Assembly: GCA_963752685.1 (NCBI GenBank)
Contig: CAVVZR010000008.1
Location: 1,931,825 to 1,995,824 of the forward strand
Source: an uncultured Chloroflexia bacterium
GTDB lineage: Bacteria > Chloroflexota > Anaerolineae > Anaerolineales > Anaerolineaceae
Length of the DNA: 64,000 nucleotides
Direction of reading: 5' to 3'
Position 1 is the stretch's first letter. Each line of letters opens with the position of its first letter. The translations under genes and the position numbers were made by a program. The notes beneath the pieces are model-generated. The model was not told the DNA's origin. It worked only from the letters and a program-made list of their open reading frames with translations, and did no database searches. This document shows positions 33,687-61,342 of this stretch, in pieces.

Positions 33687-33956
33687 ACTTTGTGAAAGAT
33701 GGTTAAGTACTTTCAAACCATCAGTACTGTTGCTATAATTTGTCTATGATCATATGAGGTGGATTTCACTCGAATATTTTTATCTGCAGATCGGATCCAG
33801 GGGGTATTTATCGTTTGGGAAGGATACAAAATCATAGCATTTCAATCTACGGCGACGAGCAAATGAGTGAACTTCATCTCAGTTGAATTTGCTTTCCTGT
33901 TCCAATGGCTGTAGAGTTTTAGGAACGAGTAATTGAGAAGGCGCCAGGGGAATTTT

Positions 33957-35276: not shown

Positions 35277-35328
35277 TTGGCAATTCCCCCGTATAAAGCT
35301 AAGTATTCCGCCAGGCTTTACCAAATTC

Positions 35329-36785: not shown

Positions 36786-36851
36786 CTTTGAAGGGTTCGT
36801 TACTTTTCTATCGCCCCCATTGGATGAACCGGTTAAATGAATTCGTTCTGA

Positions 36852-41177: not shown

Positions 41178-41464
41178 CCCGGTCGTTCGCTTTAAGCTTC
41201 TTGTTGTTTAGACAATCGACAATAGACCGCAACGAAACTGATATATATTTTATAAACAGCGACACCCTGGAAAGGTGTATAAATGTAATGCAGGTAAATA
41301 CAGTCTCTTTTGATCCGAATAATCTTCTTTTTCAGTCAGGGAGATATTCACCAGCACGTTACCAGTCGAATGGAGAGCAATGCTTCAGTAAACAGATATC
41401 AACCATCAAGGGTATTCCCTTTCAATTGGTACCGTGTACACAAGCTGCTCATGAGGGCTCATCC

Positions 41465-41555
41465 ATGCCCTGCAGGTTGTTGAATGTCCTCCTCTAGCCA
41501 AGCTAGTGCCCGACAAACCTGTCGACTTCTGTGCAGTAATCCCTGCAGGGCATGA
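41465..41555. promoter_or_regulatory. 13-bp perfect inverted repeat pair CATGCCCTGCAGG ... CCTGCAGGGCATG separated by 65 bp, in the 600-bp spacer upstream of the thioesterase gene
   Basis: Seen in sequence. Function unknown. Confidence 0.3.
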
Positions 41556-41772
41556 TAACTGGAGCAACGATCTGAAAACGGTTCGCCGTCGCCGTTCACC
41601 GCGGTGGAAATAGACGCTGCTCTTTGTGTTAGCATTCAATCAGAATTGTATAATTCCCATTGGAAAGGCCAGGTGGGATTGTCCTTTAGTCCAACCAGAT
41701 ACTACAGTTCAACGCAGCTATGGGCTGTTGGTGTCGTGAATTTCTCAGGTAAACCTATCAGAATACATCGAC

Positions 41773-42564
41773 ATGATCATTACGAAACCAACTAGCAACG
41801 AAAAACCAACCTCCGACTGGTTGGTTTTTCCAAAACCGAACCAACACGCCACCTTCCGGTTGTTCTGTTTCCCTTATGCCGGCGCGGGATCGATGGTATA
41901 TCGCACATGGCCAGATGGTTTACCCCCTCAAGTCGAAGTCGTTTCAATATTGTATCCGGGTAGAGAAAGCCGCCTTCGGGTTACACCTTGTGTAACCATG
42001 CAAACCATGATCCTTGCCCTGGTAGAGGAAATCCTCCCGAAGCTAGATATGCCCTTCGCTTTTTATGGTCACAGCTTAGGCGGTTTGATAGCCTTTGAAC
42101 TCACCCGCGAGCTCCGCCGGCGGCAGTGGTCTCAGCCAACCCGTCTCTTCATTTCCAGCCGGAGAGCTCCCCAACTCCCGGACCCCAATCCACCAATATC
42201 CCACTTGAGTGGAGATGCATTTGCTCAGGCGATCCAAAAGCGCTACAATGGAATTCCCAAGATCATCCAGCAAGACCCCGATTTGATGGATATCTTTCTC
42301 CCTATTCTCCGAGCCGATTTCTCAATCTTTGAGACTTACCAGTATCTCCAAGAGCCGGTTTTAGATATCCCGATCTCTGCTTATTATGGCTTACAAGACC
42401 ATACAATCACTGCACAGGACGTCTCCGCCTGGCAGGATCAAACCCATCACCCGTTATCGTTGCAAGCATTTCCAGGCGATCATTTTTTCATCCAGGCTCA
42501 GCGCCTGGCGCTGCTCGAAACCTTATCGCAAGCATTGGAAAAACAGTTTGCAGGTGGAGGATAA
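41773..42564 (+). CDS. Type II thioesterase (alpha/beta hydrolase, editing TE of PKS/NRPS clusters)
   Basis: FRLFCFPYAGAGSMVYRTW N-terminus, GHSLGG nucleophile elbow (YGHSLGGLIAFELT), ~260 aa. Confidence 0.85.
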   Translation: MIITKPTSNEKPTSDWLVFPKPNQHATFRLFCFPYAGAGSMVYRTWPDGLPPQVEVVSILYPGRESRLRVTPCVTMQTMILALVEEILPKLDMPFAFYGHSLGGLIAFELTRELRRRQWSQPTRLFISSRRAPQLPDPNPPISHLSGDAFAQAIQKRYNGIPKIIQQDPDLMDIFLPILRADFSIFETYQYLQEPVLDIPISAYYGLQDHTITAQDVSAWQDQTHHPLSLQAFPGDHFFIQAQRLALLETLSQALEKQFAGGG

Positions 42565-42571
42565 AGATACG

Positions 42572-43387
42572 ATGGCAGCCATCGTGAGGATACCAGGTGA
42601 AGCCTTGATACCCGGTGCAACTGAAATTCCGTTTGCCTCGAATGTAAGTGAGGTATTCTGGCACGCCTGGATACCCGCAAACCACCTGAGCATTGAACCT
42701 CACCAACTGCATATCTGGCGGGTCGATCTTCATCCATCACCCCAGGCTGCGGGTATCGAACGAGAAATGCTCTCGCCGGCGGAAACCGACCGGATGGAGA
42801 AATTTCAATTTGAACCGGACAGATACCGTTTCATAGTATCTCATTGCGCCCTGCGGATCATTTTGAGCCGTTATCTCGACATAGCGCCACAGCAGGTCCA
42901 ATACCAATACACGGATAAAGGTAAACCGTCACTGGTTCCTGCCACAGGATTATTTTTTAACCTGGCCCACTCTGGGGAACTCGCGCTGGTAGCCGTTGGT
43001 CTGCATTCTCAAATCGGTGTGGATGTGGAGTTCATTCGCATGGTCGATGACCTTGACCAACTCGCCAAATCCTGTTTTTCCCAATCGGAATTTCAGGCAT
43101 TTCAGCAAACGCCAGCCGCACTCAAGCAGCGAGTCTTTTTCAACGGTTGGACCCGTAAAGAAGCGTATATCAAAGCAGTCGGCGATGGGCTCTCAATTCC
43201 GCTGGATCAATTCGATGTTTCCATGCTGCCCGAAGAATCCCCAATGCTTCTATCCATTGCCAGCCATCCCGACGAGGTAAATCAATGGAGCATGCAGGAC
43301 ATTCCTGTGGGTGATGATTACGCCGCGTGCATTGCAATAAAAACACGCCCGGTCAATGTTTTTTATCTGTCCTTTTTCGAATATTGA
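42572..43387 (+). CDS. Sfp-type 4'-phosphopantetheinyl transferase
   Basis: GGAGGA RBS before ATG 42572. PPTase motifs GVDVEFI and WTRKEAYIKAVG (W/F-x-x-KEA). Confidence 0.8.
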   Translation: MAAIVRIPGEALIPGATEIPFASNVSEVFWHAWIPANHLSIEPHQLHIWRVDLHPSPQAAGIEREMLSPAETDRMEKFQFEPDRYRFIVSHCALRIILSRYLDIAPQQVQYQYTDKGKPSLVPATGLFFNLAHSGELALVAVGLHSQIGVDVEFIRMVDDLDQLAKSCFSQSEFQAFQQTPAALKQRVFFNGWTRKEAYIKAVGDGLSIPLDQFDVSMLPEESPMLLSIASHPDEVNQWSMQDIPVGDDYAACIAIKTRPVNVFYLSFFEY

Positions 43388-46300
43388 AACAACCATGTCA
43401 GATATAAATCCCCCCATCCCAAGTTTATCTCAACCGCCCGATCCTACGGAACCGATCGCCATCGTAGGCATTGGATGTAGGTTCCCGGGCGGTGTGAATT
43501 CACCAGAATCCTTCTGGGATCTATTGAAGAACGAAGTGGATGCGATAACCGAGATCCCGGCCAGCCGCATGAACATCAAAGCCTTGTATGATCCAAGGCC
43601 TGCAACCCCCGGGCGGATTATGACCCATTGGGGTGGATTTCTGGATGAAATCGACCAGTTTGATGCCTCCTTCTTTGGTATGTCGCCGCGCGAGGCAGAT
43701 CGCTTAGATCCACAGCAGCGCCTGATCCTTGAAGTTGCCTGGGAAGCCATGGAAGATGCCGGGGAGCCGATCGGGACGCCAACATGTCTCAATGGTGGGG
43801 TTTTCATTGGTTGCTGGTTAAATGATTTCGAGGGAAGGTTATTTAACGATCCGGACCTAATTGATTTCTACATGACCACCGGCAGCGGTCGTTATTCCAT
43901 CGTTGGCAGGCTTTCCTATTTCCTGGGTATGCAAGGGCCAAGCATCAACGTAGATACGGCTTGTTCCTCCTCCCTGGTAGCCATCCATCTGGCATGCCAG
44001 AGCCTCCACAATCGAGAATGCTCATTAGCCTTAGCCGGCGGCACCAACGTAATTTTGCAGCCCAGTATTTCCATCGCCTATTCGCAATCCCGCATGATGG
44101 CGCCTGACGGACGATGTAAATTCGGCGATGCACATGGCGATGGTTATGTAAGGAGCGAGGGCGCAGCGTTGGTTGTGCTCAAACGTCTCTCAGATGCAAT
44201 CGCCGATAAAAACCCAATTTATGCAGTGATTCGTGGTAGTGCGGTCAATAATGATGGGCGCAGCAGCGGGTTTTTAACCACGCCTGGAGGCGCAGGGCAG
44301 GAGGATATGCTTCGTAAAGCTTATCAGAATGCAAATGTATCCCCAGGCATGGTCCAGTATATCGAAGCTCACGGTACTGGCACACGGGCAGGCGACCCGG
44401 TAGAAATCCAGGCATTGGGTGCGGTATTAAAACAGGACCGCCCCATGGGCCAATTTTGTAAAGTTGGCTCGGTGAAGACAAATATTGGGCATACAGAAGG
44501 CGCTGCGGGTGTAGCTGGCTTGATAAAAGTGGTATTGAGCATGAAAAACCACTATATCCCAGCCAGTTTACATTTCCAGGAACCCAATCCCGCAATCCCT
44601 TGGGATGATCTTCCGGTTCGAATCCAATCCAAAGGTGAAGCCTGGCCCGACCATGACGGACCTGCCCTTGCAGGGGTCAGCGCCTTCGGCATCGCGGGGA
44701 CCAACGCGCATATCGTCCTCCAGGAAGCTCCGATCCTCAACTCAACTTCCGACCAGAATTTTACTAGACCGATATCCGACACTCAATCCAGCGATGATCG
44801 CATGTATGTTCTGCCGATTTCTGCTCGCAGCCCGTCTGCGCTCCACGATGTTGTCCAAAGGATGAAAAACTTTATCGAAAATGGTGACGACCATTCTCTT
44901 AACGACCTCGCCTATACCACTGGCACAAGGCGCACCCATAACGATTATCGAACTTCGTTTATTGCCCAAACCATTCAAAATCTTGATGAGCAGCTCTCTC
45001 TCTTTTTAGAAGACTGGCAAGCAGAAGGTTTTCCCCTGGCAGAACCAACGAACCGCAAGATATTGTTTGTTTTCCCTGGACAGGGTTCGCAGTGGGCCGG
45101 GATGGGGCTTCAATTGATGGAAAGAGAGCCGGTCTTCCGAGCGGTTCTCGAACGCTGCAGTCAGGCTATCGAACCATTAACCGGCTGGTCGCTCATCGAA
45201 ATTTTACGCTCTTCGCAAGTCAAAGAGCGGTTGGAACACATCGACATTATTCAACCCGCGTTATTTGCCATGCAAGTAGCTCTTGCCGAACAATGGCGCG
45301 CCTGGGGGATTGAACCTGCTGCAGTTGCTGGACATAGCATGGGCGAGATTGCCGCCGCCTACATTGCAGGCGCCATTTCCCTGGAGGATGCCGCCAGGGT
45401 TATCTGCAAGCGCAGCCAATTAATGAGAACGGTCAGCGGCAAGGGAGCCATGATTTCGGTCGACCTTTCGTTTGACGATTCGCGAGCTGCGATCCAAGGA
45501 TACGAAGATAAAATCTCAATCGCAGTGAGTAACAGCCCCCGGTCCACTGTTTTATCAGGGGATCCTGATGCTATTGATGAAGTCTCTGCCAACCTAAAAA
45601 ATAAAAACATACTATTCCGCCAGGTGAAGGTAGATGTGGCCGCACACAGTCCACAGATGGAAGCGCTGCGGCCTTTGCTCGAAAAGTCCCTGGATGGTCT
45701 GCAAACCCAACCCACCGCTATACCGATTTTTTCAACCGTATCAGCTAAGCTAGAAGATGGCGCGAGTTTTGATATTGCATATTGGGGGCGCAACCTCCGC
45801 CAACCGGTTTTGTTCTCTTCAGTGCTGAAACTGGCTTTAGATCAAGGCTTTGATACGGTTATCGAAATTAGCCCACACCCGGTTCTTCTTTCCGCTATTG
45901 AGCAAGGATTTGGTATTTTTAAGCCCGACAGCGAAGTGCGATTTGCTGCACTCCCATCCGCCCGGCGTAATGAAAACGAACAGGTTGTGCTGCTACAGTC
46001 CCTCGGTAAGCTTTTTGAGCTTGGGCACCCCATCCAGTGGTCCCGCATTTATCCACAGGAAGGGAATTTCGTAAAACTGCCATCCTATCCATGGCAGCGT
46101 GAACATTTCTGGCTCAAGGAAGCTGAAATCGACGCCGGCGCCGTTTCCCACACCTCCTCCGGATTACTTGGCACACATTTCGAAACATCCAGCCAACCAG
46201 ACACCCACTTTTGGCAGACCATTCTATCCCTTGAGACAGTTCCGTATCTGAAAGATCACCGGGTAGGTGAGACCATTCTGATGCCGGCAGCAGCCTTTGT

Positions 46301-47024
46301 GGAACTGGCGTTGGAAGCGGCTGCAGCCCTCGAAAAGCCCCTGGTGGTTAAGGACTTTGAGCTTCGCGAAGCACGCTCACTTCAGGAAGGCATGTCGTAC
46401 ATCCTACAATTTGTGATGTATTCAGATCACAACTTTGAAATTATCAGTCGTCAGGATGGAATGAGCGAATGGACTCGCCATGCTACCGGTAACTTGAGTG
46501 CCGAAGAAGATCTGACGAAGCCTGCCGACCGGATTGGGTCTGACAACCTGCTTTTCACGGCGGAAAACCACACTGGCGCTGACCACGTCAATGCTATGCG
46601 TCGCCGCGATTTGGACTACGGGCCTTCCTTCCAGGCAGTTGATTCCTACCGCCACATCGACAATCAGGTTGTTGGGCTAATACATTTGCCCGACAACCTG
46701 ACAATGGGAGAGCATATCATCCACCCAACAGTTTTGGATGCTTGCTATCAACTGCTGGTTGGGTCCCTAGACGCTTCCTCCGCGGCCGGCGACGCATTCT
46801 TGCCAATCAAAATAAACAGCTTGAAGGTATTTGCTCGCCCACGCAGCGACTCTGCCCTGACTGCTCACGTGACTCGACGATCGTTCGCCTCGGATGATCT
46901 GTTGATTGGAGACATCCGTCTGGAAAACGAGAATGGTGACCTGATCCTTTTCACCAATGGGCTGGAATTACAGCGTTTCCACAACAACAATAAACACGCT
47001 GACGATTTGTTCTACGCGATTTAA
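43356..47024 (+). CDS. Type I PKS module 1, first part: KS-AT-DH (probable start Met 43395). Terminated by a single in-frame TAA at 47022
   Basis: KS motifs [59 protein letters not shown] motifs GHSMGEIAAAYIAG and VDVAAHSPQM. DH motif LKDHRVGETILMPAAAF (HxxxGxxxxP). Confidence 0.85.
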   Translation: MFFICPFSNIETTMSDINPPIPSLSQPPDPTEPIAIVGIGCRFPGGVNSPESFWDLLKNEVDAITEIPASRMNIKALYDPRPATPGRIMTHWGGFLDEIDQFDASFFGMSPREADRLDPQQRLILEVAWEAMEDAGEPIGTPTCLNGGVFIGCWLNDFEGRLFNDPDLIDFYMTTGSGRYSIVGRLSYFLGMQGPSINVDTACSSSLVAIHLACQSLHNRECSLALAGGTNVILQPSISIAYSQSRMMAPDGRCKFGDAHGDGYVRSEGAALVVLKRLSDAIADKNPIYAVIRGSAVNNDGRSSGFLTTPGGAGQEDMLRKAYQNANVSPGMVQYIEAHGTGTRAGDPVEIQALGAVLKQDRPMGQFCKVGSVKTNIGHTEGAAGVAGLIKVVLSMKNHYIPASLHFQEPNPAIPWDDLPVRIQSKGEAWPDHDGPALAGVSAFGIAGTNAHIVLQEAPILNSTSDQNFTRPISDTQSSDDRMYVLPISARSPSALHDVVQRMKNFIENGDDHSLNDLAYTTGTRRTHNDYRTSFIAQTIQNLDEQLSLFLEDWQAEGFPLAEPTNRKILFVFPGQGSQWAGMGLQLMEREPVFRAVLERCSQAIEPLTGWSLIEILRSSQVKERLEHIDIIQPALFAMQVALAEQWRAWGIEPAAVAGHSMGEIAAAYIAGAISLEDAARVICKRSQLMRTVSGKGAMISVDLSFDDSRAAIQGYEDKISIAVSNSPRSTVLSGDPDAIDEVSANLKNKNILFRQVKVDVAAHSPQMEALRPLLEKSLDGLQTQPTAIPIFSTVSAKLEDGASFDIAYWGRNLRQPVLFSSVLKLALDQGFDTVIEISPHPVLLSAIEQGFGIFKPDSEVRFAALPSARRNENEQVVLLQSLGKLFELGHPIQWSRIYPQEGNFVKLPSYPWQREHFWLKEAEIDAGAVSHTSSGLLGTHFETSSQPDTHFWQTILSLETVPYLKDHRVGETILMPAAAFVELALEAAAALEKPLVVKDFELREARSLQEGMSYILQFVMYSDHNFEIISRQDGMSEWTRHATGNLSAEEDLTKPADRIGSDNLLFTAENHTGADHVNAMRRRDLDYGPSFQAVDSYRHIDNQVVGLIHLPDNLTMGEHIIHPTVLDACYQLLVGSLDASSAAGDAFLPIKINSLKVFARPRSDSALTAHVTRRSFASDDLLIGDIRLENENGDLILFTNGLELQRFHNNNKHADDLFYAI

Positions 47025-48437
47025 TGGGAAGCTGCTCCCGAATTAATTCCTTCTTCTTCAATGGAAGGTCATTGGCTGATCGCAAGTGATCAGGAACATG
47101 CCGCAGGTCAGCTTCGCGCAAGCCTGGAGACCCAGCAAGCGGTTTGCCGTATCCCGGCAAACGCATTTGATGGCAGTAAGATTGATCAGATCAACGCAAA
47201 AACCCAACATTTGGATTTGAGCGAACCATTAAGAGGCGTCATCTTCCTTGCCGTAGAATCCGCCGATCCACCGCCTATGGCTGCGGATCAACAATCGCTG
47301 AGACTTCTGGAACTGGTTCAAAAATTAGCCCAAGTAGATTGGAAAGAACCACCCCGGCTGTGGATTGTCACCCTGGGTGCTCAAGCTGTACTCCCAGGAG
47401 AGGCTTGTTCACCAGCATTGACCTCATTGTGGGGGCAAGCTGCCACAATTGCTCATGAATTCCCGGAATGGCAAACCTCACGAATCGATCTCGATTCGCT
47501 TGAGGCAATCCCACTCCTTTGGCAAGAACTGGCAGCCAGGCAAACCGATTCCGTCGCATTGCGAGGTGGGAAGCGTTTTATCCCTCGCCTTGTTCACCCA
47601 AATCTGCTCCAGGATGGTCTATCAAGCACAACACTGGCTGCTCCGGCCGGGGATCGCCCTTTCCAGGTAGAGGTCCCCCACCCCGGTTTATTAGACTCGC
47701 TTGAGCTCCGCGCTTGTTCGGCGCCTCAACCGGCGCCCGGCCAGGTTATCATTGATGTACATTCATCCGGGATGAACTTTATCGACGTGATGAAAGCCAT
47801 GGGCATTTATCCGGGCGCCAATCCCCTCGAGCCGGTCGCGCTGGGTCTGGAATGCTCCGGGACCATCCTGGCGATAGGCGACAATCCCAATCCATCAACG
47901 CATCAATTTGCTGTTGGGCAGGAAGTGCTCGCCTTTGCACCCCACACTTTTAGTAAATTGGTTACCGCTGACATTGATCTTGTAGCTCCTATACCGCCAT
48001 CTCTGAGTTTCGATCAGGCTGCCACAGTTCCGGTGGTATACCTGACTGCTTACTACGCCTTAATCCACCTGGGACGCATGCACCGCGGCGAACGAGTGCT
48101 CATCCATTCTGCAGCCGGTGGGGTGGGGTTGGCTGCTGTACAACTGGCACAGCATGTTGGCGCCGAAATTTTTGCGACTGCCGGCAGTGACGAAAAACGC
48201 GCCTATCTGCGCTCCTTGGGTATCCAACATATCATGGACTCGCGTTCGCTCGATTTCGCCGATCAAATCATGGCCAGCACAAATGGCCGAGGCGTAGATC
48301 TGGTATTGAATTCATTAACCGGCGAAGCCCTTACCAAAGGTCTCGAAATTTTAGCGCCATACGGACGCTTCCTCGAAATAGGCAAACGGGACATTTACCA
48401 GAATACCCGCATCGGGTTGCTCCCATTCCAGAATTAA
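47025..48437 (+). CDS. PKS module 1, enoyl reductase (MDR-type ER) domain; same reading frame as the KS-AT-DH part
   Basis: The WEAAPE linker follows the TAA directly in frame. NADPH motif [20 protein letters not shown]. The domain's C-terminus continues in another frame after ~48430. Confidence 0.8.
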   Translation, partial: WEAAPELIPSSSMEGHWLIASDQEHAAGQLRASLETQQAVCRIPANAFDGSKIDQINAKTQHLDLSEPLRGVIFLAVESADPPPMAADQQSLRLLELVQKLAQVDWKEPPRLWIVTLGAQAVLPGEACSPALTSLWGQAATIAHEFPEWQTSRIDLDSLEAIPLLWQELAARQTDSVALRGGKRFIPRLVHPNLLQDGLSSTTLAAPAGDRPFQVEVPHPGLLDSLELRACSAPQPAPGQVIIDVHSSGMNFIDVMKAMGIYPGANPLEPVALGLECSGTILAIGDNPNPSTHQFAVGQEVLAFAPHTFSKLVTADIDLVAPIPPSLSFDQAATVPVVYLTAYYALIHLGRMHRGERVLIHSAAGGVGLAAVQLAQHVGAEIFATAGSDEKRAYLRSLGIQHIMDSRSLDFADQIMASTNGRGVDLVLNSLTGEALTKGLEILAPYGRFLEIGKRDIYQNTRIGLLPFQN

Positions 48438-49644
48438 CCTGTCCTATTTTGCCATCGATCTCGACCGAATTGCCCGCGAACGCCCCGAATTTCTAGGCGA
48501 GATGTTGGCAGAAGTCATGGCCCTGCTTGAAAAAGGTGAAATTTCGCCATTACCCATTACCGCATATCCGGTCATCCAGACTAATGATGCCATGCACCAT
48601 ATGTCAGAGCCGGACCATATTGGTAAGGTTGTGCTCAACATGACTGATCCGAATGTGCCGGTGCTGCCTTCATCCCAGGAGACAGCCATGATCAAATCTG
48701 ATGCCACATACCTGATCACAGGCGGGCTCGGTGGGTTGGGACTGGCGGTTGCCAGCCAGCTGGCAGATCTGGGTGCGCGCCATTTGGCTCTGGTAAGCCG
48801 CAGCGGCGAAGAACGATTATCCCCGGAAGCCAAAACCTCCCTGGAAGGCTTGCGGGGTAAAGGCGTAAATCTCGCTATTTTGGCTGCAGATATCGCCGAT
48901 ACGGATCAAACCAGGGAGGTGCTTGCTCACATCCGCGAACACCTGCCCGCTCTGCGGGGGATCATCCATGCGGCTGGGGTGCTCGATGATGGCACCCTAT
49001 CCCAATTAACCCCCGAACGCATGCGAAATGTTTTTGCGCCCAAAATAGCCGGCGCATGGAACCTTCACTCGCTCACCGAGGACTTGACGCTCGACTTTTT
49101 TGTACTCTTCTCCTCAGTCACCTCACCTTTCGGCTCGCCGGGCCAGGGCAATTATGCTGCCGCTAACGCATTCATGGATGGCCTTGCTCATTATCGCCAA
49201 TTCTTGGGTCTTCCGGCACTCAGCATCGATTGGGGGCCGTGGAGCCAAATCGGACTGGCTGCCCAGCGACTCTCAAGGCGGTTTACTAGGTTTGGGCGGA
49301 TTTATACCGATACCCCCGAGGAAGGTCTGGACATATTCATCCGCTTGTTGGAGATTTCAGCGTCGCAAATCATTGCTACAGGCTTCAACGCGGGAGAATG
49401 GATCCAATCTCACCCGGCCGCATCCCGCTCGACCCTGTTTTACAATTTTGAAGACAGTGCTCCCGGCGCCGAAAGCACATCGACCGAGTCTGTCCGTGCC
49501 AACCTGCTGGCGGCCCTTCCGGGACGGCCAAGACACACCATATTGGAAACTTACGTTAAAGAACAGGTCGCACAAGTCCTTCGCCTGCCTCCGCTCGCGT
49601 CGATTTGCACAAACCGCTGCGCACCCTGGGATTGGACTCGCTGA
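48430..49644 (+). CDS. PKS module 1, ER C-terminus plus ketoreductase (KR); offset from the ER by one frameshift
   Basis: NLSYFAIDLDRIARERPEFLGEMLAEV completes the ER. KR Rossmann motif TYLITGGLGGLGLAVA, LDD motif HAAGVLDDG and catalytic SSVTSPFGSPGQGNYAAAN. Confidence 0.8.
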   Translation, partial: RINLSYFAIDLDRIARERPEFLGEMLAEVMALLEKGEISPLPITAYPVIQTNDAMHHMSEPDHIGKVVLNMTDPNVPVLPSSQETAMIKSDATYLITGGLGGLGLAVASQLADLGARHLALVSRSGEERLSPEAKTSLEGLRGKGVNLAILAADIADTDQTREVLAHIREHLPALRGIIHAAGVLDDGTLSQLTPERMRNVFAPKIAGAWNLHSLTEDLTLDFFVLFSSVTSPFGSPGQGNYAAANAFMDGLAHYRQFLGLPALSIDWGPWSQIGLAAQRLSRRFTRFGRIYTDTPEEGLDIFIRLLEISASQIIATGFNAGEWIQSHPAASRSTLFYNFEDSAPGAESTSTESVRANLLAALPGRPRHTILETYVKEQVAQVLRLPPLASICTNRCAPWDWTR

Positions 49645-49922
49645 TGTCTATCGAATTCCGCAACCGCCTGGAAAGCGGTCTGGAGATAGCGCTTTCCGCG
49701 ACCCTGGTATGGAACTATCCATCGATCAACGATCTGGTCCCCCACCTCGCTGAAAAAATGGGTATTACATTGGATGGTGGCGCTGTTCCCGAGGCGGAGG
49801 TCGTGAAACCTGCCACGGGCTCCCAGGAACCGGCCAACTCAGAGGACCTCAATAACCTCAGCGACGCGGAGCTGGCGGCGATGTTGGATAGTGAATTGGA
49901 CAAAATTGATGATTTGCTCTAA
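49590..49922 (+). CDS. PKS module 1, ACP domain and C-terminal docking helix; offset by one frameshift
   Basis: The LGLDSLMSIEFRNRL phosphopantetheine-attachment motif is present. C-terminal LSDAELAAMLDSELDKIDDLL matches the C-termini of modules 2 and 3. Confidence 0.8.
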   Translation, partial: SARVDLHKPLRTLGLDSLMSIEFRNRLESGLEIALSATLVWNYPSINDLVPHLAEKMGITLDGGAVPEAEVVKPATGSQEPANSEDLNNLSDAELAAMLDSELDKIDDLL

Positions 49923-50065
49923 AGGCCAATTCTTGTTGGAATCCCCTCTGGCTTTGCAGCCTATAATGAAACTAGGCATGCCTCCAACAGGTAAATCTCT
50001 CAACATCGAGCAATTGTTTGGTTGGTTTCATCCCTGCTGTTCGATGACCCAGGAATAAGGTAACT

Positions 50066-53000
50066 ATGACCACCGAAAACGACAACACCACCCAGTTAAA
50101 ACGGGCCTTGCAATCCCTCAAAGAACTTCGACTTCGCCTGGAAAGTGTGGAACGCGCGCGCCGAGAACCTATCGCCGTGATCGGCATGGCTTGCCGCTTC
50201 CCGGGTGGGGCCGATTCTCCAGAGGCCTATTGGGACGTGCTGAAAAATCGGGTCGATGGCATTGTGCCCATCGCCAATTGACCGTTGGGATGCGGCTGCG
50301 CTTTTCGATGCGGACCCCGGGTATCTGGCAAAGTAGCCACTCGCTGGGGTGGATTCTTACCGCAGGTAGACCGATTTGATGCCGCTTTCTTTGGCATCTC
50401 TCCTCGCGAGGCCATCCATATGGATCCGCAGCAGCGTCTGCTCCTGGAAGTGGCCTGGGAAGCATCGAAGATGCCGGTTTGACCTGTTGAAAAGTTGGCC
50501 GGCAGCCGCACTGGTGTTTTTGTCGGTGTTCACAGCCACAGCAGCGATTACTACTTGATGCAGGCCCTAGACCCCGAGGACATCGGACATCTACTCCGGC
50601 ACTGGCACCTCCCATAGCGTAGTCAGCGGGCGAATGTCTTACTGGTTTGATCTGCATGGCCCCAACATGGCGCTGGACACAGCTTGTTTCTTCGTTGGCT
50701 GCAGTCCATCTGGCTGTCCAAAGCCTCCGCAATGGCGAAAGCAATCTGGCGCTGGCAGGGGGCGTGAATGTCATCCTCACCCCGCATTTCACTATGATGA
50801 CCTCAAAAATGCGCATGTTGTCGTCCGATGGACGCTGCAAAGCATTCGATTCGCGTGCGGATGGAATTGGGCGCGGCGAAGGCAGCGGTGTTGTAGTGCT
50901 CAAAGAGATTATCGGATGCCTTGAGAGACGGCGATCACATCCTTGCATTGATCCGCGGTTCAGCTATCAACCAGGATGGCCACTCAAATGGCCTGACCGC
51001 CCCCAACGGCCTCTCCCAACAAACCGTCATCCGCGATGCATTGAAAATGCGGGGGTAAAACCTGAGCAGGTCAGCTATGTGGAGACCCATGGCACAGGCA
51101 CCCCTTTAGGTGACCCGATCGAAGTCGAAGCGCTCAGCGAAGTTTACGGCTCCCCCCATCCTCACGCGTTCCCTGCGTCTTGGGATCCTCCAAAACCAAT
51201 CTGGGCCATCTCGAAGGCGCTGCCGGGATAGCCGGTTTTATGAAAGCCGTGCTTTGCCTTACAAAACGGCACCATCCCAGCCAATTTGCATTTCAACAGA
51301 CTCAATCCCCATATTTCTCTGGCTGGCACTCGCCTGCAAATCGCAACCGAAGAGCGCCTCTGGGAAACGGGCAACGAGCCGCGTCTGGCGGGGATCAGCG
51401 CATTTGGTTGGTCAGGCACCAATGTCCATGTCGTCCTCGAGGAATTTAAACAAGGGGATCGGGAACCCATAGTTCAGCCATCTCATTCCCGGTCGCTCGT
51501 ACCAACTATTTTGCCCATCTCCGCTCGCTCCGCTGGAGCGCTCAAAGAGTTAGCAACGGCATATCAATTGCGATTGTCTCTACCCAGAAATCTCATTGGC
51601 AGATCTTTGCCACACCGCAGCGCTCCATCGCAGCCATCACGAACACCGTATGGCGATTGTCGGTTATACGACAAGTGATATGCTCGAAGCCCTGACGGCC
51701 TTCGAGCACGGTGAGAGCCACCCACGTCTGCAAATGGGTCTGGCGGCCGAAAACCGGAAGCCTGGGATCGTCTTTGTATATTCCGGGGTGGGCGGCCATT
51801 GGCCTGGGATGGGAAGCCAACTGCTGGCCCAGGACCCAATCTTCAGCCACGTGATCGAACAATGTGATGCAGCCTTCCGCCCTTATGTCAATTGGAGTCT
51901 GATCGAACAGCTAAAGGCTGGAAAAGAAAATTCACGTTTCGACGAAATTGATGTGGTGCAGCCCTGTTCGTTTGCGATCCAAGCTGCACTCACTGCAAGT
52001 TTGCAAGCACGGGGGATCATTCCCGACGTTGTCATTGGCCATAGTATGGGCGAAGTGGTCGCGGCATATGTTTCCGGGGCCCTTTCTCTGGAAGATGCCT
52101 CTGCAGTCATTTGCAACCGCAGCCGGCTGATGCGCCGCGTCAGCGGTAAAGGCGCGATGGCCGCTATCGGCCTGACCCGCGAAAAAGCTGACGCGTTGCT
52201 TTCGAATTATCGAACCCGTTTATCCATAGCTGTGAGCAACAGTCCCTCATCCACCGTTCTGTCTGGAGATCCTGAAGCTTTAGAAGAAGTGCTAATAGGC
52301 TTGCGCGCCCAAAACATATTTACGCGCGCTGTCAACGTGGATGTGGCTGCTCACAGCCCCCAAATGGACCCTTTGCGCCCCGAATTAGTAAGTACTCTTT
52401 CCAATATCCACCCCAAAGCCACCACGATCCCGCTCTATTCGACAGTGCTTGCCGGCCCAGTCGACGGATCATCTCTGAACGCAGATTACTGGGGGAAGAA
52501 TTTACGCCAACCTGTGCTATTTTCTTCTACGATCGAGCAAGTAATTGCTGAAGGTTACGATATTTTCATCGAATGTGGACCCCACCCGCTGCTTTTGCCG
52601 GCCATTTCCCAGGCCGTGCGCCCTGAAAACTCTCAAAACAATCCATTGACCCTCCTTCCTACGATGCGCCGGGCCGAGAACGAGCAGACCATCCTGCAAT
52701 CTGTTGCTGCGGGGCTGTACACAGCCGGGGTCTCCGTAGATTGGAAAAAGATTCTCCCCGAACCGGGCGATTTCGTCCACTTGCCGGCCTATCCCTGGCA
52801 GCGTAAGCGCTATTGGATCCAGGTGAAACAAAATGCCTTCGATCCTCTGGCCAATTGGGTCTACCAGATAGAGTGGAAACCGCAAGATAACAATTCCGTG
52901 CCCATCCCCCAATCCCTGGGTACATGGCTGGTCTTCTGTGAAACCAGCGATCCATCTACCCGGGTTTGCTCTTGGCAAACCGGATCAGCGCTTTCGGCGG

Positions 53001-54750
53001 GAATTCTGTTTGTGTCTACAAGGGAAACGGATACGACCAAGAATCATCTGATCGTTTTCGCGTGGACCCACACAAGCCTGAGCATTTCAAAAAGTTGCTG
53101 GGGCAGTGTGTGGCAATTCTCCGGCCTTGCAGGGAGTTGCTTATTCGTGGGGCCTGCAGGCACCCAAAGCCGACCAAATCGATCTGCAACATTAAGAAGC
53201 CCAATCTGTTTTACTGAGGGGGGCGCTCCATCTGGTTCAGTCCCTGGCGGAAACCAATGGCAGCCAGGCGGTAACCCGCGCCTATGGTTAATCACCAGGC
53301 AGGCCCAGCCCGTTGCAGGCGACCGCCCCCTGGCTTGGCGCAGTCCACCTTGTGGGGCCTGGGGCGAGTGGTCGCCTTTGAACATCCCGATTTATGGGGC
53401 GGCCTGATTGATGTCGACGACATGCCCCCGATAAACTCCTCGCCGATCTCAGTGGGGAACCCGATCAGCAAATCGGGTTCCGCCGGGGAAGGCGCTATGG
53501 GCTCATCTGTTGCGCCAGACCATCTCCTCCCTCGACCTCCACCTGACCTTACTGCCCGATGCCAGCTATCTGGTAACCGGGGGGCTGGGCGGCCTGGGGT
53601 TAAAAGTGGCCAATTGGTTGGCAAGCCACGGCGCCAAACACATCGCCCTGATGGGGCGCAGCAGCGGCTCAGAGGCCGCACGCCAGGCGGTTCAGGCGCT
53701 GAGATCCGCGGCGTCCAGGTGCCATGGTCCAGGGAGATGCCAGTCAACCGGAGGATCTCCACCGAATTCTGGCTGAAATTTCGCAGGCAATGCCTCCGCT
53801 GCATGGCGTGATCCATGCCGCCGGCGTTGTGGAAGACGCACTTTTGGTGCGCCAAAATTGGGCCGGCTATGAACAGGTATTCGCCTCAAAAGTAGCCGGT
53901 GCCTGGAACCTGCACGAACTCACCCAGGAGTTGCCGCTTGATTTCTTCGTGCTGTTTTCTTCGGCGGCATCGCTCCTAGGCACACCCGGTCAGGCAAACT
54001 ATGCCGCCGCCAACGCTTTTATGGATGCGCTGTCCTTTGAACGCCATGCTGCCGGCCTGCCAGCCCTGTTGATCAATTGGGGCGCATGGGATGAAGTGGG
54101 GATGGCCGCCGGCAGGACAGCAAGCCGCCTGGCCCGTTTGGGCATTGAAAGTTTCTCACCGGAAAAGGGGCTGGCTGGCTTGGGACGGCTGATCCACCAG
54201 CGGCGCCGCAGCCCTTGTGCCTCGATGAAATGGGAGAAATTCACGTCCAAGGCCCGGGCGGCTACACCTGCTTCTTTCTTCTCCGGCTTGACGCGGAACG
54301 ATGCACCGGCAAAACCTCCGCCTGATCAACGAGGAGAACTCAAAGCATCCTCCAGCTGCTCGAATCTGCCCATCCCGCGCGCGCGCAGATTTGCTGGGCA
54401 GCCATATCCATAAAATCGTGGTCAAGGTACTTTCCTATGACAGCAGCCAGACATTGGCTCACGACCAGGGTTTCTTCCAACTCGGGATGGATTTCGTTAA
54501 TGGCATGGACCTTAAAGAAAGCCTTGCAAAAGAGCCTGGCCGGCTCTTTACGCACTACCTTGGCGTTTGATTTCCCCAGTATCAACCTGCTCACCCAGAT
54601 ATTTCTAACCGAATTGTTCCCCCAGCAGACACGTCGCCGAAGAATCGCCGCCCCCCCCTTCGATCACGACGAAGCATTGGACGAACTACCCACGAGGAAT
54701 TGAAATCGATGCTCGATATTGAAATGCGAAGTTTGGAAAACGACCTATAA
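50066..54750 (+). pseudogene. Type I PKS module 2 (N-docking-KS-AT-psiKR/KR-ACP-C-docking), fragmented by at least 10 frameshifts. This is either a genuine pseudogene or a low-quality sequence region
   Basis: Domains are readable only by hopping frames. [23 protein letters not shown]...[45 protein letters not shown] and GHSMGEVVAAYVSG are present. There is no DH between the AT and psiKR (LAQSTLWGLGRVVAFEHPDLWGGLIDVDD). KR motifs YLVTGGLGGLGLKVA and FFVLFSSAASLLGTPGQANYAAAN. ACP remnant, and the docking tail [18 protein letters not shown]. Confidence 0.7.
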
Positions 54751-54755
54751 AACTT

Positions 54756-57700
54756 ATGCCTGATAAAACCACACCCACAAACGACCTAGACCAATTGAAA
54801 CGTGCTTTGAGCGCGTTGAAAAAAGCGCACGCTCGCATCACCGCCCTTGAGCAAGCGCGTTCAGAACCGATTGCCATTGTTGGAATGGGCTGCCGCCTGC
54901 CAGGTAAAGCCAACTCGCCGCAGCATTCTGGCAGCTGCTGCGCGAGGGCCGCAGCGGAATGACCCAGGCGCCTGCAGAGCGTTGGGATACAACTGCTTTT
55001 CAGGCATCCTCCCCAGATGAGCCGGGCAAAATGCAGTCATCTTTGGGTGGTTTTATCAACAACGTCGACCAGTTCGACCCCCATTTTTTTGGCATTTCGC
55101 CCCGCGAAGCCAATGCAATGGATCCCCAGCAGCGCCTGACGCTCGAAGTGGTCTGGGAAGCGCTCGAAGATGCCGGTATTGTCCCTGCCGGCCTGGCCGG
55201 CAGCTCCACCGGTGTTTTTATTGGGATCGGGATCAATGATTATGGTCGCTTGCAGATCCCCGCGCAGGCTGGCTGACCCCAGCATGATCGACAATTACTT
55301 CCTCCAGGGAAATGCCTTTTGCATTACCCCCAATCGCGTCTCCTACGCGCTCGACCTTCAAGGCCCCAGCATGGCGATCGACACCGCCTGTTCAGCATCC
55401 CTGGTCGCCATTCATACTGCCTGTGCAAGCCTTCACAACGGGGATAGCTCTCTGGCCCTTGTCGGCGGCTCGAACGTGATGCTCGCTCCCGATAAATCGA
55501 TCGGTCTGGGAAAATTTTTCGCACCAGATGGCCATTGCAAAGCCTTCGATTCTCGAGCCAATGGTTATACCCGTGGCGAAGGCTGCATTATCTTGGTACT
55601 GAAAAGGCTGTCCGATGCCGATCACGTCCCATGACCGCATTTATGCGCTGATCCGGGGCAGCGCCATAAACCAAGATGGCTTCAGCAGCGGTTTGACCGT
55701 ACCCAACGGGGTAGCCCAGGAAGCCATGCTGGGCACAGCCCTAAAAAATGCCGGTCTCGCAGCCAGGCGATATGGATTATATCGAAGCTCATGGTACCGG
55801 CACTTCTCTGGGCGACCCAATTGAAGCCAATGCCCTGGGGCAGTTTTTGCCAGCGGGCATAAAGCCGGCGCAGGAACTGCTCATTGGTTCGGTAAAAACC
55901 AATATTGGTCATCTGGAAGCCGGGCAGGCATCGCGGGCTTGTTCAAGATTGTCCTGGCCCTGTACCACCGGGAAATTCCACCCAGTTTAAATTATATTGA
56001 ACCCAATCCCATGATTGACTTTGCTACCCTGCGCCTAAGGTGGTCACCCAATTAACGCCCTGGCCGCAGAGCGACCACCGCCCCGCGCAGGGGTCAGTTC
56101 CTTTGGATTTGGCGGGGCCAATGCACATGTGATTGTTGAAGCCTTTCCCGATGAACTGTACCTCCGCGTCAACCATGCCCTGCAACGGACCGCAAGCCAT
56201 CTACTCACCCTATCGGCCAAGACCCCCAAGCTCTCACCCAATCCGCCCAAAATTTGGCAACCTTCTTGCGCGCCAACCCTGGGCTTGCCCCGGAGGATGT
56301 TTGTTACACCGCCAACCGGCGCCGTTCGCATTTCACTCACCGTCTGGCGTCGTCTCCCTGACCGGCCCGGATTTGCCAAATCTGGACGCATTCGCGGATG
56401 GCAAACCCGCTCCAATGGATCAGCGCTCAGGTTCAGCGCGCCAAGCAAAGTCGCTTTTTTATTCACCGGTCAGGGCTCGCAATATGTAGGCATGGGTACC
56501 CCGCTTTTCAGACACAGCCCGTTTTCCGTGCCATTATGGATCGCTGCGCCGCCATCTTTCAGCAGGAGACGGGCGAATCGCTGTTCGCGATTCTCTATCC
56601 GGCTGAAACCACTCTGCACCCTCCAGGGTACGAGGAACATTAAAAATCAACCATACTACTTACACCCAACCAGCGCTTTTTGCCATCGAATATGCCCTGG
56701 CTGAGCTATGGCGCTCCTGGGGGGTTGAACCCGCGTGGTGATGGGGCATAGCATTGGTGAATATGTGGCAGCATGTGTTGCCGGGGTCATGAGCCTGGAA
56801 GATGGCATGAATCTGGTTACGGCCCGCGGCCGGCTGATGGGCGCGCTGCCCGAGGGGGGGTGATGGCAGCTGTCTTCGCCCCTCTAGAACGCGTCCAGCA
56901 AGAACTAGCGGCCCTTGGTTTCGATCGCGGCCATCAATGGCCCTGATAGTATCGTCATCTCCGGTGCTCCGCTGCCGTGCAAGAAATATTGGACCGGTTC
57001 AACGAGCAGGGCGTCCAAACCCGTAAATTGGTCGTCTCTCACGCCTTCCATTCCCCGCTCATGGATCCAATACTGGATGAATTTGAGCAGGTGGCGGCCA
57101 CCTGCCCGTTTCACCCCCCAGAATTCCTCTGATCTCCAATATCACCGGTCGTCCATTTGCATCGGGCGAAATTCCCGATGCGGCTTACTGGCGCACACGT
57201 CCGCTCAGCAGTCAATTTTGCCGCCGGAATGGGCTGCACTGCATGACTTCGGGATTTCTACATCCTGGAGACAGCCTCACCCGGCCCTGATAGCCTCGGG
57301 AAGCGCTGTATTCCGGATGAGCGTGATGATCCTACCGGAGGGTGTAAAAACCTGTGGCTGCCTTCTCTGCGTCAAGCGCAAATCGATGACCTGCAAATGC
57401 AAAAAAGCCTGGCAGCTTTCTACTGCCTTGGTCAGGAAATAGATTGGGCCGCGGTAGAGAGTCAGCGCCCGGGCAAACTCACCACCTTGCCCACCTATCC
57501 CTTCCAGCACGAGCGGTTCTGGTTCCAGACCTCTACTGAGGGGCGTTCACCAAAATCTTCCCGCAGCCACTCCGCTCCCTCCGAACGGCCGCTTCTCGGC
57601 AGCCGCCTGCGCTCTCCCCTGATCAAAGACATTGTCTTTGAGACGCACATCGATGCCCAATCGCTCGGTTATTTGTGGGACCACCGCGCTTTTGGCACGG

Positions 57701-60700: not shown

Positions 60701-61342
60701 GAGCCGGCAGGGTTTCTGGCATGATCGCCCCGGAAGAAGGCGGGCAGATATTCGATAAGACCCTCAGAAAAGCACGGCGCGTTGGTGTACTCCCGATAGA
60801 CTGGCTGAATTTTGCGACGCGCACCCAATAGCCCCCGCGCTTCAGCGAACTCGGCGGGACCTCCGCGCAACCGCCAGCCTTCCTCCTTCCGCCAACCCTC
60901 CGGCACAAGATAATAATCGGGGGCTAACCAAAGCCCCCCTGAATAAACGTAAACCACTGCTGCAAGCCCATGTGAGCGAACAAGCCATGCGTGTTGGGGT
61001 AAGCGCCACCTATAAACTAGATTTCGCCCAGCCGCTGCGCGAAATTGGCATGGATTCCTAATGGCTGTCGAGTTGCGCAACGTCATCTCCGCCAGCTTTC
61101 AGCTCAAATTACCTTCCACCCTGCTATTCGATTACCCCACTATCGATGCGCTCACGTCTATCTGACAAGCGAGATTTGGCCAAGCCCTTCGCCACAGCCG
61201 TTGCGCAAAACCAAGAGAAATCAGCTCAAAATAAAACCGCTCGAACGCAGCCGAAATCCAAGACCTTTCCGACGATGAAGCCGAAGCAGCGCTCCTGGCC
61301 GAGTTGGAGAAACCAAAGCGCAAAGAAAAGGTGCCTGCATGA
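54756..61342 (+). pseudogene. Type I PKS module 3 (N-docking-KS-AT-DH-psiKR-ER-KR-ACP-C-docking), heavily frameshifted
   Basis: [52 protein letters not shown] motifs [34 protein letters not shown] motifs [30 protein letters not shown]: the 57397-58923 ORF with WDHRAFGTGIFPASAF. ER remnants GEVEIDVRATGLNFPYV and [27 protein letters not shown] remnant DFFVMFSAGLAG. ACP remnant LGMDS|LMAVELRN. Tail LSDDEAEAALLAELEKP. Confidence 0.7.

Follow-up and report, generated by a model that had tools for sequence, protein, structure and literature searches.

Module 1 (M1) of the system described here is probably the true initiating module of a cis-AT type I PKS of at least four modules in an Anaerolineae-like (Chloroflexota) genome, and receives its starter from outside the polypeptide. 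Our analysis confirms that a Cys ketosynthase (KS1) stands at the N-terminus without a loading domain or docking helix, and this bare N-terminus is conserved among orthologs. The best explanation places KS1 in a widespread clade of KSs that start chains and have N-termini either bare or fused to FAAL-ACP or ACP. A bare KS-first start is the usual form of this known group, and thus an ordinary feature.

Organization of the gene cluster

The window, meaning the whole stretch of DNA that was analyzed, spans 64 kb and contains the following features.

41773..42564, + strand: type II thioesterase (TEII) gene, directly upstream of the PKS genes (Pfam Thioesterase, 3.1e-39)
42572..43387, + strand: Sfp-type 4'-phosphopantetheinyl transferase (PPTase) gene, reaching the M1 start (Pfam ACPS, AASDHPPT_N)
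43395..49922, + strand: module 1 (M1) gene, KS-AT-DH-ER-KR-ACP plus acidic C-terminal docking tail (Pfam; alignments to L011 and L081)
43395..43448, + strand: M1 N-terminal tail (MSDINPPIPSLSQPPDPT), proline-rich and without a docking helix (sequence)
43449..44774, + strand: KS1, condensing ketosynthase with the initiating-clade motif IAIVGIGCRFPG (Pfam, motifs, NJ tree)
45015..46034, + strand: AT1 (Pfam Acyl_transf_1, 7.4e-94)
49887..49922, + strand: M1 C-terminal docking tail (DSELDKIDDLL followed by the stop), kept in orthologs
50066..54750, + strand: module 2 (M2) gene, KS-AT-KR-ACP with an N-terminal docking helix; about 25 frameshifts
54756..61342, + strand: module 3 (M3) gene, KS-AT-DH-ER-KR-ACP with an N-terminal docking helix; many frameshifts
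61339..64000, + strand: module 4 (M4) gene, KS-AT and onward, with an N-terminal docking helix; leaves the window

The M1 N-terminus reads MSDINPPIPSLSQPPDPT-EPIAIVGIGCRFPGG, beginning with MSDINPP from 43395 rather than 43396 and reaching EPIAIVGIGCRFPGG at 43449-43493. As originally predicted, the module opens directly with a Cys KS and has no docking helix: the KS starts at residue 19 and is preceded by a tail of only 18 residues, seven of which are proline. Specifically, Pfam assigns ketoacyl-synt to residues 19-268 of the 1209-aa product of the ORF at 43356-47024, with no domain before it. The Cys/His/His triad of KS1 is evident in the motifs DTACSSS (43953-43973), EAHGTGT (44364-44384) and NIGHTEGAAG (44481-44510), and KS1 is therefore a Cys KS rather than a KS-Q. 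With the Cys in place and nothing before the KS, the further claim that the first PKS carries neither a KS-Q nor an AT-ACP or CoA-ligase loading didomain is also borne out.

Starting instead from the in-frame ATG at 43356 would lengthen the product by 13 residues (MFFICPFSNIETT) and make the gene overlap that of the PPTase, whose stop is at 43387. The start at 43395 is favored because the tails of orthologs are 11-19 residues long. These tails read MTNPTISREAA in L081 and MSPANSNKPDVPENPAQH in L011, and P0026 has none; across orthologs and relatives, they range from 0 to 30 residues and are conserved in neither length nor sequence. Residues 1-21 of M1 lack secondary structure in a single-sequence AlphaFold model of residues 1-200, although this is a poor model with a mean pLDDT of 36. 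The best explanation is that the proline-rich tail is a disordered leader only.

Pfam and a tblastn domain map reveal the full reducing loop KS-AT-DH-ER-KR-ACP in M1, and with one TAA and about four frameshifts bridged, the gene aligns colinearly to the intact L011 ortholog of 2123 aa. The original prediction had allowed that frame correction might uncover a loading domain within this ORF, but the corrected M1 ORF reveals none before the KS.

The later modules begin differently. Docking helices open modules 2-4, as had been claimed, and are seen at 50066, 54756 and 61339. Each of these N-termini carries an LKRAL-type helix (residues 3-33 in M2, with an AlphaFold pLDDT of 76-96), and each follows an acidic C-terminal tail of the preceding module. 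M1 ends in LSDAELAAMLDSELDKIDDLL at its stop, M3 carries LSDDEAEAALLAELEK ahead of its stop, and the end of M2 is likewise acidic. Counterparts of the M1 tail are DDELDALDDLL in L011 and KDELDAIDDLL in L081, both running to the stop. All three docking pairs (M1C-M2N, M2C-M3N and M3C-M4N) are in place; M1 alone has a bare N-terminus. M4 is 94% identical in DNA to L086, where the gene stays open for 1027 aa; this locus, reached via P0274, runs only about 180 aa past the window end.

The TEII-(PPTase)-KS-first layout recurs in the syntenic orthologs L081 (75% identity), L011 (51-56%) and L005, whose genes are intact. The related clusters L083 and L084/L085 likewise have a TEII and then a KS-first PKS.

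Absence of a loader upstream of module 1

Nothing resembling a loading enzyme had been noticed in 30-43 kb, and this observation holds and extends to 1-43 kb on the basis of Pfam, tblastn and motif scans. Among ORFs of at least 150 aa in 1-43 kb, Pfam detects no AMP-binding, FAAL, GNAT, AT-ACP or free ACP domain, and two FAAL-ACP queries yield no FAAL match by tblastn in the whole 64 kb. Motif scans fail to find PS00455, and the sole ACP motif located within an open frame of at least 70 aa belongs to M1 itself, at 49626. Pfam identifies no PP-binding domain before KS1, and upstream of KS1 in the window there is no loading didomain or tridomain of the AT-ACP, KSQ-AT-ACP, CoA-ligase-ACP or GNAT-ACP type. 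Every detectable PKS domain lies at or after 43395. Across the full 64 kb, no sequence looks like a FAAL, AT-ACP, GNAT, KSQ or free ACP. The proposal that the true first protein is encoded on the opposite strand, upstream of 40 kb, is ruled out for this window, in that 1-43 kb carries no PKS, FAAL or ACP signal on either strand.

There is also no room for a hidden loading domain, because an intact PPTase gene abuts the M1 start. This PPTase is 44% identical to the PPTase in the same position in L011. L081 has no PPTase there, and what precedes its M1 gene is an AT-rich spacer of 165 nt in which every frame contains stops. We considered a loading domain masked by a frameshift upstream of 43395, and this is ruled out by the intact PPTase gene and by the 40-47 kb region, in which no frameshift is detected relative to either L081 or L011. 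A promoter and terminator scan of 39.4-43.6 kb returned sites no more numerous than in shuffled sequence, and the phrase 'lacks a loading module' had no match in a literature search.

KS1 groups with chain-starting ketosynthases

In an NJ tree of 92 KS domains, which has no bootstrap support and draws on a biased sample of loci picked by similarity to M1, the clade of KS1 has 33 members, comprising 29 with a bare N-terminus and four that are fused to FAAL-ACP. None of the 32 KSs that carry a docking helix and none of the 13 internal KSs falls within this clade. Association with the GIGCR motif gives a Fisher p of about 1e-4 with a crude classification. Thus, the oddity that the bare N-terminus had been taken to imply is overstated: 29 of 33 clade members share it, as does mycocerosic acid synthase (MAS). 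In addition, about 14 of the 33 clade loci lack any adenylating enzyme in the 10 kb that flank them on each side.

How module 1 is primed

In the mechanism that we favor, the starter acyl group would reach the KS1 Cys from outside the polypeptide. AT1 would then load the extender, the chain would be fully reduced, and the product would move to M2 via the acidic-tail/basic-helix docking pair. M1 would need no docking helix because no upstream PKS subunit hands over a chain. By analogy with MAS and Pks12 module 1, the acyl donor would most likely be an acyl-CoA or a FAS acyl-ACP of primary metabolism; next in likelihood is a route through a FAAL, either alone or together with an ACP, from another part of the genome. 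We infer both the identity of the donor and a single, non-iterative use of M1 for each chain.

The original prediction that the starter is probably delivered in trans is supported: M1 has no cis loader, no KS-Q and no dock, and its starter has to be supplied by something other than the polypeptide itself. The part that fares poorly is the suggested partner with a compatible C-terminal docking helix, which is unlikely given that M1 offers no binding site and its tail is unconserved.

The most serious competitor, which we regard as possible but clearly behind, is a dedicated FAAL (or a FAAL with a stand-alone ACP) encoded outside the window that activates a fatty acid and loads it onto M1, either on the ACP of the module or by way of a free ACP. 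This route differs from the favored mechanism in the acyl donor only. FadD28 is thought to serve MAS, and CylA/CylB to serve CylD, and these provide a model for such an arrangement. Several relatives point in the same direction: FAAL-ACP is present in cis in the KS1 sister lineages L015-L017 and L028, a strong FAAL gene lies near the bare-N KS in about four clade members (L035, L037, L058 and L078), and P0056-type relatives start with an N-terminal ACP. However, a pathway-specific loader would normally cluster with its PKS, whereas no FAAL or ACP of this kind is found in the 64 kb and none occurs within 10 kb upstream in L081, L011, L005, L083, L084 or L002.

It is unlikely that M1 instead primes itself. 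In one form of this idea, AT1 would place malonyl or another extender on ACP1, KS1 would decarboxylate it without condensing it, and the acetyl-type unit so formed would return to the KS. In another, AT1, whose VAAH motif is unusual, would accept a monocarboxylic acyl-CoA in addition to the extender, in the manner of a FAS MAT. The module might also iterate in FAS fashion before passing the chain on. Such a scheme would suit the FAS/MAS-like fully reducing domain set of M1. It would also suit the TEII, whose editing role is to clear ACPs that have been mis-primed and which is invariably adjacent; it directly precedes the KS-first PKS in L081, L011, L005, L083, L084 and L085. AT1 has its GHSMGE motif at 45330, and its specificity motif, at 45636, is VAAHS; xAAH motifs have been linked to enlarged pockets. 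The eurocidin loading AT has a GAAH motif and accepts acyl-CoA starters (PMC12843615), and the splenocin AT has an AAAH motif (PMC11907408). Yet VAAHS also occurs in the AT of M2, an elongating module with a docking helix, so the motif probably tracks extender choice and not starter loading. Moreover, AT1 retains the carboxylate-binding Arg and is for this reason an extender-type AT. Self-priming is hypothetical.

A more elaborate version of this idea seems improbable. It holds that TEII-led, KS-first clusters of Chloroflexota are a distinct hybrid type in which a FAS/MAS-like M1 dispenses with a loader by making its own fatty-acyl primer: it self-primes from malonyl or acetyl units via its unusual VAAH AT, iterates several times, and only afterwards docks to strictly modular subunits, and the TEII that is always adjacent controls priming fidelity.

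Interrupted reading frames

The broken reading frames of the PKS genes had gone unmentioned in the original prediction. In M1, the frame is broken by a TAA at 47022-47024, which is in frame, and by about four single-base frameshifts (near 48435, 49270, 49304 and 49588), which were located by frameshift-aware alignment to the intact M1 of L011 (2123 aa) and to L081. Between 47 and 50 kb there are about four frameshifts; M2 has about 25, and the first 2.2 kb of M3 has 16 or more. We also considered a conserved split of the module into KS-AT-DH and ER-KR-ACP proteins, as might be read from the TAA at 47022, an ATG at 47061 and the two gene calls in L081. This was rejected as a conserved feature because the stop in L081 falls within the DH fold, some 40 residues before the position seen here, and the L011 gene has no interruption.

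Should the frameshifts and the 47022 TAA be genuine, the cluster would be non-functional in its host. The locus would be a decaying pseudogene array and the priming question would be moot, but we doubt that this is so. The reading draws on the TAA, on more than 45 frameshifts over M1b, M2 and M3, on 31 indels in M4, and on public gene calls that are fragmentary (P0001, 1222 aa; P0241, 508 aa; P0121, 586 aa). Against it, frame-corrected identity to L081 is undiminished where frameshifts are densest (75.6% in M1a, 72.1% in M2 and 81.5% in M3), and only one further stop appears. The 31 gaps between M4 and L086 mix insertions and deletions; 26 are single-base and only eight fall in homopolymers. 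The indel-to-mismatch ratio is about 0.2, far above that of natural coding divergence. Isolated frameshifts also affect the adjoining non-PKS genes (AsnB-like and flippase). Finally, sister assemblies use contig_NNNNN names, a style typical of long-read metagenome assemblers. The indels and the TAA at 47022 are most likely consensus errors of low-coverage long reads. Such a density of errors in the public assembly would make product prediction from its gene calls unreliable here.

Position of module 1 in the assembly line

It is very improbable that M1 is not first and that, in a non-colinear arrangement, KS1 is fed without canonical docking by a preceding PKS or loading subunit whose gene lies past the 64 kb or elsewhere: the window does stop inside M4, leaving the remaining cluster outside, and colinearity of PKS clusters is not invariant (PMC11907408), but in the NJ tree (which lacks bootstrap support) KS1 groups solely with KSs that initiate and not with any that elongate, all other junctions of the cluster have explicit docking pairs, the M1 tail cannot be a recognition element because it is unconserved, and two of the nearest relatives are visibly first, with unrelated genes upstream in L002 and an NRPS module with a TubC_N dock following in L003. 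The sole case of an M1-like PKS placed after another PKS, L058, looks like two independent MAS-like synthases parted by a PapA5-like condensation enzyme.

Implications for annotation

With M1 read as the initiating module, the missing loading module signifies neither an assembly gap nor an exotic mechanism, which matters for annotation and genome mining, and the bare M1 start raises no new mechanistic question. The initiating-KS clade is recognizable by IAI[IV]GIGCRFPG together with a bare, ACP-fused or FAAL-ACP-fused N-terminus. Recognizing this clade helps to fix module order and to predict a fatty-acyl-type starter for uncharacterized polyketides of Chloroflexota.

Comparison with known systems

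MAS (PDB 9d2z, 9d2y and 5bp1) has the same domain order as M1, KS-AT-DH-ER-KR-ACP, and a similar size (2124 aa versus about 2170 aa). A phmmer comparison with 9d2z gives E = 1e-217 and aligns query residues 19-1193 with chain residues 6-1173. Like M1, MAS has its KS within a few residues of the N-terminus and carries no loading domain or docking helix. The primer that MAS uses is a fatty acyl group made beforehand. By the wording of the title of Rainwater and Kolattukudy (1985; cited in PMC12370991), MAS 'elongates n-fatty acyl-CoA'. The two systems differ in other respects. MAS is a stand-alone iterative enzyme whose product is off-loaded by PapA5, whereas M1 terminates in a docking tail and passes its chain to a series of at least three more modules. 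In addition, M1 has the AT motif VAAHS, unlike MAS, and fadD28 adjoins mas whereas M1 has no nearby FAAL.

Among solved structures, CurL (PDB 4mz0) is the second-best match for the KS-AT region (E = 1.7e-222). CurL-type cis-AT modules of cyanobacteria and myxobacteria resemble M2-M4 in having one module per polypeptide and short helical docks. However, CurL sits internally in its pathway and opens with a docking helix that M1 lacks, and the curacin pathway begins with a GNAT loading tridomain, none of which was found here by Pfam in M1 or in the 1-43 kb ORFs of at least 150 aa.

Module 1 of Pks12 from M. tuberculosis is fully reducing, as is M1, and it extends C10-C18 acyl-CoAs or acyl-SNACs directly in vitro (PMC11574752, PMC2443190). 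Pks12 is a bimodular single polypeptide with docking elements at both termini that support head-to-tail, 'modularly iterative' assembly (PMC2443190), whereas M1 has no N-terminal docking element.

Other PKSs begin with FAAL-ACP-KS (for example L015-L017, L022, L028 and L066) or with a PpsA-type ACP-KS. These architectures carry their loader in cis, whereas M1 lacks both a FAAL and an N-terminal ACP. The KSs of both arrangements are the nearest non-bare kin of KS1, and they share with it the motif IAI[IV]GIGCRFPG.

Module 1 opens with a condensing ketosynthase

From 41.7 kb to the end of the window, the plus strand holds two accessory genes followed by four polyketide synthase (PKS) genes with one module per gene (M1 through M4).

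Gene layout at the start of the PKS cluster
41773-42564, +, type II thioesterase (TEII) gene (Pfam Thioesterase, 3e-39)
42572-43387, +, Sfp-type phosphopantetheinyl transferase (PPTase) gene (Pfam ACPS and AASDHPPT_N)
43395-49922, +, M1, KS-AT-DH-ER-KR-ACP
50066-54750, +, M2, KS-AT-KR-ACP
54756-61342, +, M3, KS-AT-DH-ER-KR-ACP
61339 to beyond the window end, +, M4, KS-AT...

The M1 product begins with MSDINPP at 43395, and EPIAIVGIGCRFPGG follows at 43449. The public gene call P0001 (1222 aa) instead starts at an in-frame ATG at 43356, which would lengthen the tail by 13 residues; we favor the start at 43395 because the N-terminal tails of orthologs are 11-19 residues long. Pfam places the ketosynthase of M1 (KS1) at residues 19-268, with no domain ahead of it. 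Its catalytic Cys (DTACSSS) and both His residues (EAHGTGT and NIGHTEGAAG) are present, which indicates a normal condensing KS and not a KS-Q. The 18-residue tail includes 7 Pro, a composition that should render it incapable of forming a docking helix. An LKRAL-type amphipathic helix opens M2, M3 and M4 alike (residues 3-33 of M2 in an AlphaFold prediction, pLDDT 76-96), and a short acidic helix directly precedes the stop codon of M1, M2 and M3. The original prediction, that M1 opens directly with a Cys-containing KS and has no docking helix, loading domain or KS-Q while the later modules carry docking helices, is thus confirmed in every particular.

No loading domain is concealed upstream

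The PPTase gene fills the DNA to within 8 nt of 43395 and aligns in a single frame with the same-position PPTase of a related genome. Frameshift-aware alignment against two orthologous clusters reveals no frameshifts in 40-47 kb, and all PKS-domain tblastn matches in the window fall at or past 43395. Therefore, no loading domain is hidden ahead of M1, even after frame correction, and a first subunit farther upstream on the opposite strand, as had been suggested, finds no support.

A loading enzyme had also been reported missing from 30-43 kb, and this absence extends across 1-43 kb. Pfam analysis of all ORFs of at least 150 aa in that region identifies transporters, sensor kinases, a LuxR/MalT regulator, glycosyltransferases, a flippase, an AsnB-like amidotransferase and a PAE-like esterase, and no AMP-binding, AT, ACP, GNAT or KSIII proteins. 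Two FAAL-ACP (fatty acid-adenylating loader) didomain queries from related loci have no tblastn match in the 64 kb, a motif scan of the window finds no PROSITE AMP-binding signature, and a single ACP motif lies in an open frame of at least 70 aa, that of M1 itself.

Broken reading frames most likely reflect assembly errors

Alignment with two related clusters, L081 and L011, reveals disrupted PKS reading frames that had been overlooked, with single-base indels rising steeply in density past 47 kb.

Disruptions of the PKS reading frames
40-47 kb, +, 0 frameshifts
47022-47024, +, one in-frame TAA between DH and ER of M1
47-50 kb, +, 4 frameshifts
M2, +, about 25 frameshifts
M3, first 2.2 kb, +, at least 16 frameshifts

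Because 40-47 kb is clean, the N-terminal observation is unaffected. Frame-corrected identity to L081 is 75.6% for M1a, 72.1% for M2 and 81.5% for M3, with just one extra stop, and the regions richest in frameshifts equal or exceed the others in identity. Another cluster, L086, shares 94% identity with the window across 60.9-64 kb and has an M4 that stays open for 1027 aa. The comparison with L086 yields 31 gap openings over 3.1 kb, all at 60.9-62.8 kb and followed by a clean stretch of 1.2 kb (62.8-64 kb); 26 are single-base, with insertions and deletions mixed, and only 8 of the 31 fall in homopolymers. The AsnB-like and flippase genes carry one or two isolated frameshifts each (35924, 36841, 38460). 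As judged from these alignments, low-coverage long-read consensus error would fit the pattern far better than evolutionary decay. The same indels leave the public gene calls P0001, P0241 and P0121 fragmentary.

The M1 TAA corresponds to CAA/Gln in L081 and Asp in L011. L081, a 75%-identical ortholog, is itself interrupted by an in-frame TAA, which lies about 40 codons nearer the start, within the DH fold (L081 13436-13438), so its M1 is called as two genes. Both stops lie within the 7-mer GATTTAA, which could reflect systematic long-read error, independent nonsense mutations or coincidence. Elsewhere, a PAS-rich sensor histidine kinase spans three overlapping ORFs (12423-15134, 15127-16659, 16535-18136) and a MalT/LuxR-type regulator spans two (27688-29595, 29489-30742); in both cases frameshift artefacts may again be responsible, with no separate genes involved.

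The bare N-terminus is conserved and its tail is not

A locus scan with one genome per species returned 80 loci, and protein searches added closer relatives; the window's own proteins (P0001, P0121, P0241) belong to one 2.14-Mb contig. Three loci are syntenic with the window: L081 (ENA contig_32728, 922 kb; M1a 75.6% identical), L011 (Anaerolineaceae MAG; 51-56% identical) and L005 (Anaerolineales MAG). All share the order AsnB-like (minus strand), PAE-like, TEII, (PPTase), M1, M2 and onward. L081 lacks the PPTase gene, and its M1 is preceded by 165 nt of AT-rich spacer that has stop codons in every frame.

The L011 M1 is an unbroken 2123-aa KS-AT-DH-ER-KR-ACP protein. M1 begins MTNPTISREAA-EPIA in L081 and MSPANSNKPDVPENPAQH-EPIA in L011, and the L005 tail comprises 25-30 Ser/Pro-rich residues. 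TEII directly followed by a KS-first PKS recurs in the distant relatives L083 (via P0004) and L084/L085 (via P0010), and P0003, judged by its protein sequence, has an N-terminus of this bare kind too. Among 20 fetched homologs, tails range from zero (P0026: MEPIAIVG...) to about 30 residues and share no conserved motif. A bare N-terminus is therefore conserved while its tail is not, the opposite of what is expected for a recognition element.

The block directly upstream of the PKS comprises a GT4 glycosyltransferase, a Polysacc_synt flippase (minus strand), the AsnB-like amidotransferase (minus strand), the PAE-like secreted esterase (pectin-acetylesterase family) and TEII. It is kept partly or wholly in four Anaerolineae-type genomes (window 33933-43387; L081 2848-9835; L011 778-7312; L005 685-5705), which hints that the polyketide may belong to a glycolipid or cell-envelope pathway. 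The L086 match is confined to M4 (60942-64000), with no megablast match between its upstream M2/M3 region (L086 1-9590) and window 50000-60900, and this suggests module-level mosaicism or recombination among closely related clusters.

KS1 groups with other bare ketosynthases

We sorted 92 KS domains, taken from both the window and the loci, by what precedes them (FAAL-ACP in cis or adjacent, internal ACP, docking helix or bare N-terminus) and built a neighbour-joining tree, which carries no bootstrap support and samples loci chosen by likeness to M1. KS1 groups with the KSs of L001, L002, L005, L011, L003 and L058b, all bare, and the KSs of L015-L017 and L028, which are fused to FAAL-ACP, form the sister group. 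The clade around both holds 33 KSs (29 bare, 4 FAAL-fused) and includes none of the 32 docking-helix KSs or 13 internal KSs. The motif IAI[IV]GIGCRFPG follows the clade split (odds ratio 12, Fisher p 1e-4, on a crude automatic classification). Locus context agrees with this placement: unrelated UDP-glucose dehydrogenase genes lie upstream of the bare KS in L002, and in L003 an NRPS module that carries a TubC_N dock comes after the bare KS.

Starter supply

M1 is most likely the initiating module; with no PKS subunit handing it a chain, it would have no need of a docking helix. KS1 would be acylated from outside the M1 polypeptide, and the chain would then pass from M1 through M2 and M3 to M4 via three acidic-tail/basic-helix pairs. 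The core proposal of starter delivery in trans holds.

We tentatively favor an acyl-CoA or FAS acyl-ACP as the donor. About 14 clade loci, the window included, have no adenylating enzyme within 10 kb on either side, and in about 10 the sole AMP-binding matches are weak ones located past the KS, which we take to be NRPS adenylation domains (Pfam-confirmed for L003 only). An unlinked FAAL, acting alone or together with an ACP, is a less likely donor. In its favor, FAAL-ACP is fused in four loci of the clade, and about four more have a strong FAAL gene nearby.

Self-priming of M1, by decarboxylation or via its acyltransferase (AT1), seems improbable. AT1 keeps the carboxylate-binding Arg, and its specificity motif is VAAHS.

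AT motifs of the four modules
45636-45650, +, M1, VAAHS
52343-52357, +, M2, VAAHS
57040-57054, +, M3, HAFHS (malonyl-type)
63676-63690, +, M4, RAAHS

The classical AT specificity motifs are HAFH and YASH, and VAAHS and RAAHS match neither; V[DN]VA[AS]HS recurs throughout the M1 homolog family. Motifs of the xAAH kind have been associated with enlarged pockets, as for splenocin AAAH (PMC11907408), and one of them, eurocidin GAAH, with the loading of acyl-CoA starters (PMC12843615). Because M2 also has VAAHS, the motif more likely reflects extender choice. Least probable of all is an unseen upstream PKS subunit that feeds KS1. The suggested docking-compatible partner is not supported, as the M1 tail is unconserved among homologs.

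Comparison with characterised systems

The best PDB match of M1 is 7zma, an unnamed putative polyketide synthase (E = 2e-229, strongest over the KS region), and the CurL KS-AT also matches (4mz0, E = 2e-222). Full-length mycocerosic acid synthase (MAS; 9d2z, E = 1e-217 against all PDB sequences) aligns over residues 6-1173 with M1 residues 19-1193, and thus shares its KS-first, fully reducing architecture. The title of a paper cited in PMC12370991 credits MAS with elongation of n-fatty acyl-CoA. A Bipolaricaulia MAG (L058 1-16690) encodes a FAAL, a MAS-like PKS (2223 aa), a lone Condensation-domain protein (484 aa) and a second MAS-like PKS (2249 aa), an arrangement that resembles mycobacterial FadD28-Mas-PapA5 logic but lies outside Actinomycetota.

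Module 1 of Pks12, another fully reducing mycobacterial module, directly extends C10-C18 acyl-CoAs (PMC11574752) and acyl-SNACs (PMC2443190). By analogy only, the mycobacterial cases are precedents for loader-free priming of a KS1-type KS. A bare KS start is usual in a large clade of initiating KSs that spans phyla and has well-studied mycobacterial members, and M1 is an uncharacterised newcomer within this known clade.
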